Assembly (NCBI GenBank): GCA_964016885.1
Contig: OZ024743.1
Location: 70,122,001 to 70,186,000, forward strand
Direction of reading: 5' to 3'
DNA from: Eledone cirrhosa
Lineage: Eukaryota
DNA length: 64,000 nt
Shown here piece by piece: positions 7,218 through 7,742 of this stretch (position 1 is the stretch's first letter; each line of letters starts with the position of its first letter). The translations under genes and the position numbers were made by a program. A model generated the notes under the pieces. The model was given only the letters and a program-made list of their open reading frames with translations, made no database searches and had not been told where the DNA came from.

Positions 7218-7257
<40 letters not shown>

Positions 7258-7378
7258 TAAAAGGAAAAGAAAATGCTGACAAATTGTTCCCAGTGACAAA
7301 TAGTTTAATTAGGAATAAGTAAAAATTAGTAATAGTATTGGTTAGTATTCAGTTTTGGTTTTAACTTTTTGACGTTGT

Positions 7379-7737
7379 TCAAATGGTAAACATTCCGTAC
7401 GTTATATCACCAATCACTCCACTAATCAGTAACCAAAACGGTATCAGGACAAAAATTAAGTCATGGGTAATCCTGTAGTTTTAAGCAGATTAAAACTTGG
7501 AAAACTATTTTGAGCAGAGCACTTACTATAAACCAAAGTTTTCGTTTCAACGTCATGTTGGACTCGCTGGGATCGAAATTGTTCTTACATTGCATTATCA
7601 TACTGATTGTGATGTAGATTATACAAACTCCGTCGAACAACCATAGTGGGATAAATATGAGGAACCAATTCCAGTTAACTCTTTCGTCCAAACGTAACAC
7701 GAGGAGGACCAAAAACACGAGAACTATAAACCAGGTG

Positions 7738-7742
<5 letters not shown>
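7379..7742 (-). pseudogene. TMEM60: TMEM60-like coding sequence, 5'-truncated, one frameshift
   Basis: LFTWFIVLVFLVLLVLRLDERVNWNWFLIFIPLWLFD...LKRKLWFIVSALLKIVFQVLICLKLQDYP, then a shifted frame LIFVLIPFWLLISGVIGDITYGMFTI*; matches my recollection of TMEM60 (WNWFLIFIPxW motif) over nearly its full length; no ATG and no splice acceptor, abuts (TA)n. Confidence 0.85.

Follow-up and report, generated by a model that had tools for sequence, protein, structure and literature searches.

A young, dead TMEM60 copy fused to the end of a Penelope-like element in Eledone cirrhosa

The window analyzed here, a stretch of 64,000 nucleotides from Eledone cirrhosa (GCA_964016885.1, contig OZ024743.1, positions 70,122,001 to 70,186,000), contains a real, young and dead chimeric copy of the host gene TMEM60, joined to the terminus of a Penelope-like element. 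The copy cannot make the full protein and is probably without function. In our judgment it probably arose by one insertion, in which reverse transcription by the element switched from the element's own RNA to TMEM60 mRNA. The copy records a rare route by which Penelope-like elements likely duplicate host genes.

The island (7255-7742) lies between (TA)17 and a (TA)24-(TG)8-(TA)13 tract (Table 1), and its minus strand encodes a protein with the Tmemb_185A domain (PF10269; E = 1.3e-11). A reading of the DNA made earlier without database searches (the sequence-only reading) had described a (TA)n-bounded island with nearly the whole TMEM60 coding sequence, short of its first few codons, and this description was borne out. 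Starting at codon 8 and ending 10 nt beyond the stop codon, the copy spans 376 nt of TMEM60; it lacks the first seven codons and is 98% identical to its parent. It differs from the parent by four substitutions (7646, 7640, 7457, and 7373) and two 1-nt deletions (at about 7467 and 7453; net change, −2), both of which sit in short homopolymer runs, and its reading frame breaks near codon 99. What had been taken for one frameshift near 7460 is instead these two deletions together with the substitution at 7457.

Table 1. Positions in the window of the parts of the TMEM60 island and of a related fold-back copy
Feature	Position	Strand	Remarks
(TA)17 tract	7220-7254		3' end of the insertion; usual target of the element family
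pLTR end (last ~115 nt) of an endonuclease-bearing Penelope-like element, putatively of the Neptune or Nematis type	7255-7370	−	Stops at the 3' terminus typical of the family; optional ~40-nt extension absent
Host/element junction	7369-7370	−	1-2 nt of microhomology (AA)
TMEM60 3' UTR, first 10 nt	7369-7378	−	One substitution, 7373
TMEM60 coding copy, codon 8 to stop	7379-7742	−	PF10269 match; two 1-nt deletions (~7467, ~7453); substitutions 7646, 7640, 7457
(TA)n/(TG)n tract	7743-7832		5' end of the insertion
Fold-back copy (inverted arm, direct arm, 3' extension)	45081-45467		Older subfamily of the same element

The stop codon of the copy occupies 7381-7379 and the join to the tail 7370-7369, so that the tail begins 8-10 nt past the stop, within a few bases of it as had been reported. 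The TMEM60 part is in sense orientation relative to the element and contains nothing but coding sequence and 10 nt of UTR. It meets the tail without intervening TA, poly(A), or residual UTR, and the short motif CAACC is also present in both donors, TMEM60 and the element, a few nucleotides upstream of the junction. The island carries a single pLTR match, with a pLTR on one side of the TMEM60 part only; at its 5' end it passes straight into (TA)n, as in the 5'-truncated class of the family. The sequence-only reading had found neither poly(A) nor an evident TSD. Poly(A) is indeed absent from the island, where the 10 nt of UTR are followed by the pLTR; a TSD, on the other hand, is not resolvable inside a TA tract. 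Both flanks of the island are microsatellite and repeat-rich, and contigs break in the TA tracts, so that no TSD or empty site could be identified.

Searched against the genome as DNA, the coding part gave two matches from two candidates, the island itself and C23:6286714-6287088 (98%). A protein search recovered the same two TMEM60 loci, the other four of its seven matches being weak (E = 0.016-0.69). The C23 locus, on another contig, is an intact gene of 128 aa (PF10269; E = 1.9e-11). Among named atlas clusters, its protein is nearest to "transmembrane protein 60" (0.95), a lead that comes without an alignment. The island is therefore not the only TMEM60 locus, a case that had been raised against the capture. 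Counting copies and comparing the parent's 3' UTR with the tail, both put forward earlier as checks, gave one intact gene plus the island and a parent UTR unrelated to the tail, with no tail match within 46 kb around the parent. The unrelated UTR and the absence of a tail match around the parent led us to reject the TMEM60 3' UTR as the source of the repeat family, an origin that had been suggested as an alternative. The next 349 nt of the parent do not resume in the window or in the 10 kb before it, which makes it unlikely that the tail is a separate, later insertion next to the gene. No intron interrupts the coding sequence of the parent, and a putative splice acceptor lies 61 nt before the point at which the copy starts; since the captured part spans no intron, an RNA origin cannot be shown from it. 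The two parts of the island are alike in age: the TMEM60 part carries 4 substitutions in 376 nt and the tail differs at 1 of 112 nt from its nearest copy (113 copies compared), each being about 1% from its donor.

The tail was found to be the pLTR end of an autonomous Penelope-like element, which supports the earlier proposal of a capture by TA-targeting, Penelope-like machinery. Searching the genome with it gave 101 candidates, and all 40 of those scored (the island copy included) matched at 93-100%. It is 93-98% identical to full-length elements. Exact matches in the genome numbered 1,369 for one 34-nt end pattern and 1,015 for a second, as opposed to none for the reversed controls; by this measure, the family comprises at least 2,384 exact end matches. 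A reverse transcriptase domain (PF00078) is encoded in L039 and L041 and a GIY-YIG domain (PF01541) at the C terminus in L042, the frame of which also holds both a CX4CXXC linker and a CCHH motif. From the motif spacing, we tentatively take the element to be Neptune-like. Direct pLTR repeats were present in all three long copies, and the optional 3' extension was flagged on 31 of 100 ends. None of the 37 Rfam matches at E ≤ 1 in the three long copies was a hammerhead ribozyme, minimal variants of which can escape such a search. Judged from these features, and by the definitions in the available text of PMC8557442, the source of the tail is a young, autonomous, endonuclease-bearing element of the Neptune or Nematis clade. 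Over 116 nt, the tail is also 84.5% identical to the two arms of the fold-back at 45081-45427 (E = 4e-31), near the roughly 80% estimated before. However, the fold-back is an older relative, only 81-85% identical to full-length elements, and was rejected as the donor of the tail.

Nested, TA-associated repeats surround the island. A Hydra-type GIY-YIG fragment lies nearby on the minus strand (5535-5810), a fold-back repeat occupies 7833-8450, and a Hydra-type end (8688-8707) adjoins an assembly gap. Elsewhere in the window, an open frame of 1,141 aa on the plus strand (29212-32637) encodes a non-LTR reverse transcriptase (PF00078) with several broken relatives at 19948-21836 and 35305-38566, and fragments at 41258-43216 may resemble a hAT/SPIN-type transposase. 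A search for retrocopies of housekeeping genes gave 7 exon-sized matches for PF01248 and 38 matches for PF00022, including one full-length intronless gene. This gene, L172 (G000:C3:145352751-145353860), is an actin-family frame without the intron that its close paralogues carry near codon 42. By eye, the flanks of L154 and L172, the two housekeeping copies inspected, showed no pLTR.

To describe how the family inserts, 186 ends were sampled, 100 from the first end pattern and 86 of 100 from the second, 14 in close inverted pairs being left out. (TA)n adjoined 176 of them (93 of 100 in the first list and 83 of 86 in the second). On their 5' sides, the first 100 ends (with 12 of 13 run-off ends extended) carried an inverted arm in 52 cases, directly adjoining (TA)n in 36, and foreign sequence in 11, with 1 unresolved. 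The corresponding counts for the 86 ends of the second list were 31 inverted, 31 TA, and 18 foreign, with 6 that ran off the locus; over the whole sample, 7 ends still ran off their loci. Most foreign sides were plain flanks, internal duplications, or later insertions, secondary insertions being found at L090, L093, and L236, and those foreign partners that could be resolved were other retroelements. Seventy-nine frames from 12 foreign segments yielded only one sub-threshold low-complexity match and one reverse transcriptase. The non-repeat segments searched (L246, L252, and L076, with L087 left out) are single copy in the genome and are thus flanks, not captures. No second recognizable capture of a host gene occurred among the 186 ends, so host capture is rare, probably affecting under about 2% of ends.

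Of 28 copies in the survey that join (TA)n directly, 12 measure 170-194 nt, which marks a favored 5' breakpoint within the pLTR. At L073 (1450-1600), a 58-nt copy lies in RTE-like coding sequence, outside a long TA tract, with a 24-nt duplication. Here (TA)7 stands between the element and the duplicate, where the target offered no more than TATA; the TA repeats may therefore be added or lengthened during insertion. A 74-nt duplication was seen at L116.

Contigs derived from public reads cover part of the locus. In run X1, a 49-nt piece consists of 19 nt of (AT)n and the first 30 nt of the captured part, with an exact (TA)n/TMEM60 junction; because X1 may be the individual that was assembled, this contig counts as read support and not as a second individual. 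The parent matches these contigs with 0 differences, and the parent contigs break at the 5' point of the island. Contig depth was 3 at the junction contig as opposed to 6.6-7.8 at the parent, which is too weak for a call of heterozygosity. Read contigs covered 7375-7594 in none of the four runs and left 7375-7740 bare in three of the four, although two of these runs, X1 and X4, contain the parent. The 3' junction and the two deletions fall outside the covered part, and no contig has a loose end at that junction. At 7646, the base of the copy also occurs in X6, a contig of another species, and X1, X4, and X5 have the parent's base. Not every difference therefore need have arisen on the copy, and the change at 7646 may predate it or have recurred. 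The word share of X1-X4 (0.67-0.69) was close to the value expected if the copy's private words were missing (0.71); it was set aside since contigs drop rare variants. A parent pLTR was found neither in the assembly nor in the contigs of X1, X4, and X6 across the site (X5 has no cover there).

In the sequence of events that we propose, a GIY-YIG nick at (TA)n would prime copying from the 3' end of the pLTR. After about 115 nt, the enzyme would switch at the 1-2 nt of microhomology to the TMEM60 message, 10 nt past its stop codon, copy 376 nt of it, and terminate early at codon 8. The 5' end of the cDNA would then be joined to the TA tract, and the copy would decay neutrally afterwards. The template was presumably mRNA rather than DNA. 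A single insertion is supported by the tail, which ends exactly at the family's usual end beside (TA)n, and by the 5' end, which joins (TA)n like that of the 5'-truncated copies. It is further supported by the sense orientation and extent of the host part, the nearly equal youth of both parts, the failure of the parent sequence to resume beyond the tail, and the 5' junction in read-derived contigs that match the parent without differences. The family provides a same-orientation fusion bounded by (TA)n (L057/L157, described below), and L1 sense chimeras with foreign 5' and element 3' parts are described in the available text of PMC11838501. Several points count against this account: sense orientation has a 50% chance of arising anyway, the captured part lacks an intron, no second capture was found in the sampled ends, the site offers neither a TSD nor an empty counterpart, the 3' junction and both deletions lie outside read cover, and the base at 7646 is shared with a contig of another species. 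The argument in the available text of PMC3846280 that the templates of Penelope elements may be antisense or unspliced also weighs against it.

The insertion could be the element's work but its host piece a copy of genomic TMEM60 DNA, made during repair or joining of the 5' end. The missing intron and the microhomology at the junction would fit such a copy, as would the introns kept in Penelope-moved host genes of a rotifer, according to the available text of PMC3846280. We nevertheless regard it as unlikely, given that the piece is in sense orientation and wholly coding apart from its UTR nucleotides, that the foreign partners resolved at ends were other retroelements, and that the three non-repeat segments lacking a second copy were flanks. 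Distinctly unlikely, in our view, is a 5' transduction, in which a lost parent allele had a short pLTR just past its stop codon and a read-through TMEM60-pLTR transcript was retrotransposed in trans. Here, pLTRs as a cis signal for moving passengers (PMC3846280, available text) and the ability of the family to insert outside long TA tracts (L073, with its 24-nt TSD) stand against the existence of only one copy and a parent that has no pLTR in the assembly or in contigs of three of the four runs (X1, X4, and X6).

A TMEM60 retrocopy or duplicate and a pLTR copy may also have entered the same TA tract in two events and been fused by deletion. The site is a nest of repeats, and secondary insertions do occur in the family sample (L090, L093, and L236), but the join bears no trace of TA, poly(A), or leftover UTR, the ages of both parts are similar, and no element-tailed copies were found at two loci with inspected flanks in two highly expressed families; such a history is quite improbable. 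It is hardly credible that the island is an assembly chimera or that its breaks are sequencing errors. The deletions lie in homopolymer runs outside read cover, as errors might, but the 5' junction is exact in a read-derived contig at the point where the parent's contigs break, and the copy has substitutions besides indels.

Fusions to another Penelope clade, with (TA)n beyond, were found at 3 of the first 100 ends (L057, L066, and L170). At L057/L157 (G000:C1:24412505 upward), (TA)8 is followed by 276 nt of reverse transcriptase coding sequence of another Penelope clade and then, in the same sense, by 1,326 nt of the tail's family, which is the shape of the TMEM60 island with a retroelement as the passenger. 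In L066 and L170 the foreign clade is joined as inverted 3' ends, and the donors traced for these two have a CxCX5C linker, which the available text of PMC8557442 gives for the Hydra clade. Naiad and then Nematis had been considered for this second clade and were dropped, as the linker fits Hydra. Single (TA)n-bounded insertions with arms from different clades, either an inverted Hydra-type end with the tail's family or the reverse, were observed at L066 (578-1534), L170 (G000:C1:175331952-175335614), and L048 (5000-6200), joined by short microhomology in L066 (1-2 nt) and L170 (5 nt). Such arms suggest that the two were primed independently, but they may also derive from two insertions fused by a deletion.

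Together with the TMEM60 copy, the cross-clade fusions lead to a testable question on Penelope reverse transcription. We tentatively raise the possibility that two or more RNAs contribute to individual insertions of Penelope-like elements, through jumps onto host mRNAs, as in the TMEM60 copy, and onto RNAs of other Penelope clades, the inverted 5' arm included. If this were true, most retrocopies of host genes in this genome would come chiefly from these elements, and the arms would appear to be primed independently rather than by self-priming. Whether Penelope-like copying uses sense or antisense templates, and how inverted arms originate, are treated as open in the available texts of PMC8557442 and PMC3846280; a sense, coding, single-pLTR chimera would favor copying of sense RNA with template jumps, as in L1. 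The thousands of pLTR ends would also lend themselves to a simple screen, in which the host sequences lying 5' of them are rated by strand and exon junctions.

Our literature search, an incomplete survey that did not extend to the supplements of the cited papers, returned no report of a single-pLTR mRNA chimera, and the available texts of PMC13282606 and bioRxiv 10.64898/2026.07.22.740005 added nothing on capture. The closest Penelope cases come from the rotifer Adineta vaga, as described in the available text of PMC3846280. There, an NRPS gene was moved between Pen3a pLTRs, with its introns kept and an 8-bp TSD, and an LRR gene with a 3' pLTR, called old, "may have" been moved by Penelope. 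As in these cases, host coding sequence in the TMEM60 island is joined to a Penelope pLTR without internal element sequence and was probably moved in trans. Whereas the NRPS insertion has the whole gene with introns, direct and inverted pLTRs, and an 8-bp TSD, in the TMEM60 island a single, partial pLTR lies 3' of a piece that is 5'-truncated and free of introns, the target is (TA)n, and the Penelope clade is another. In shape, the LRR case comes nearer to it.

The available text of PMC8557442 describes Neptune and Nematis elements as having a reverse transcriptase, a CX2-5CxxC linker, and, at the C terminus, a GIY-YIG domain with CCHH, along with pLTRs, a 30-40-nt extension, inverted 5' arms, and a (TA)n bias. 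The tail's family shares all these features and may differ in its pLTR, for which Rfam gave no hammerhead match. Like an L1-made processed pseudogene, the island is a 5'-truncated, decayed second coding copy on another chromosome; unlike one, it lacks poly(A) and nearly all of the 3' UTR, which are replaced by an element terminus. U6/L1 and mRNA/L1 chimeras, attributed to template switching or RNA ligation in the available text of PMC11838501, have foreign sequence on the 5' side and L1 on the 3' side in the sense orientation. The island likewise has foreign sequence 5' of an element's 3' end, in the same sense and at the element's preferred target, but the element is a GIY-YIG Penelope-like one with a pLTR end, no poly(A), and no resolvable TSD. 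The locus has the shape of an L1 chimera with a Penelope end, and has precedents in the rotifer genes moved by Penelope and in the L1/mRNA chimeras.
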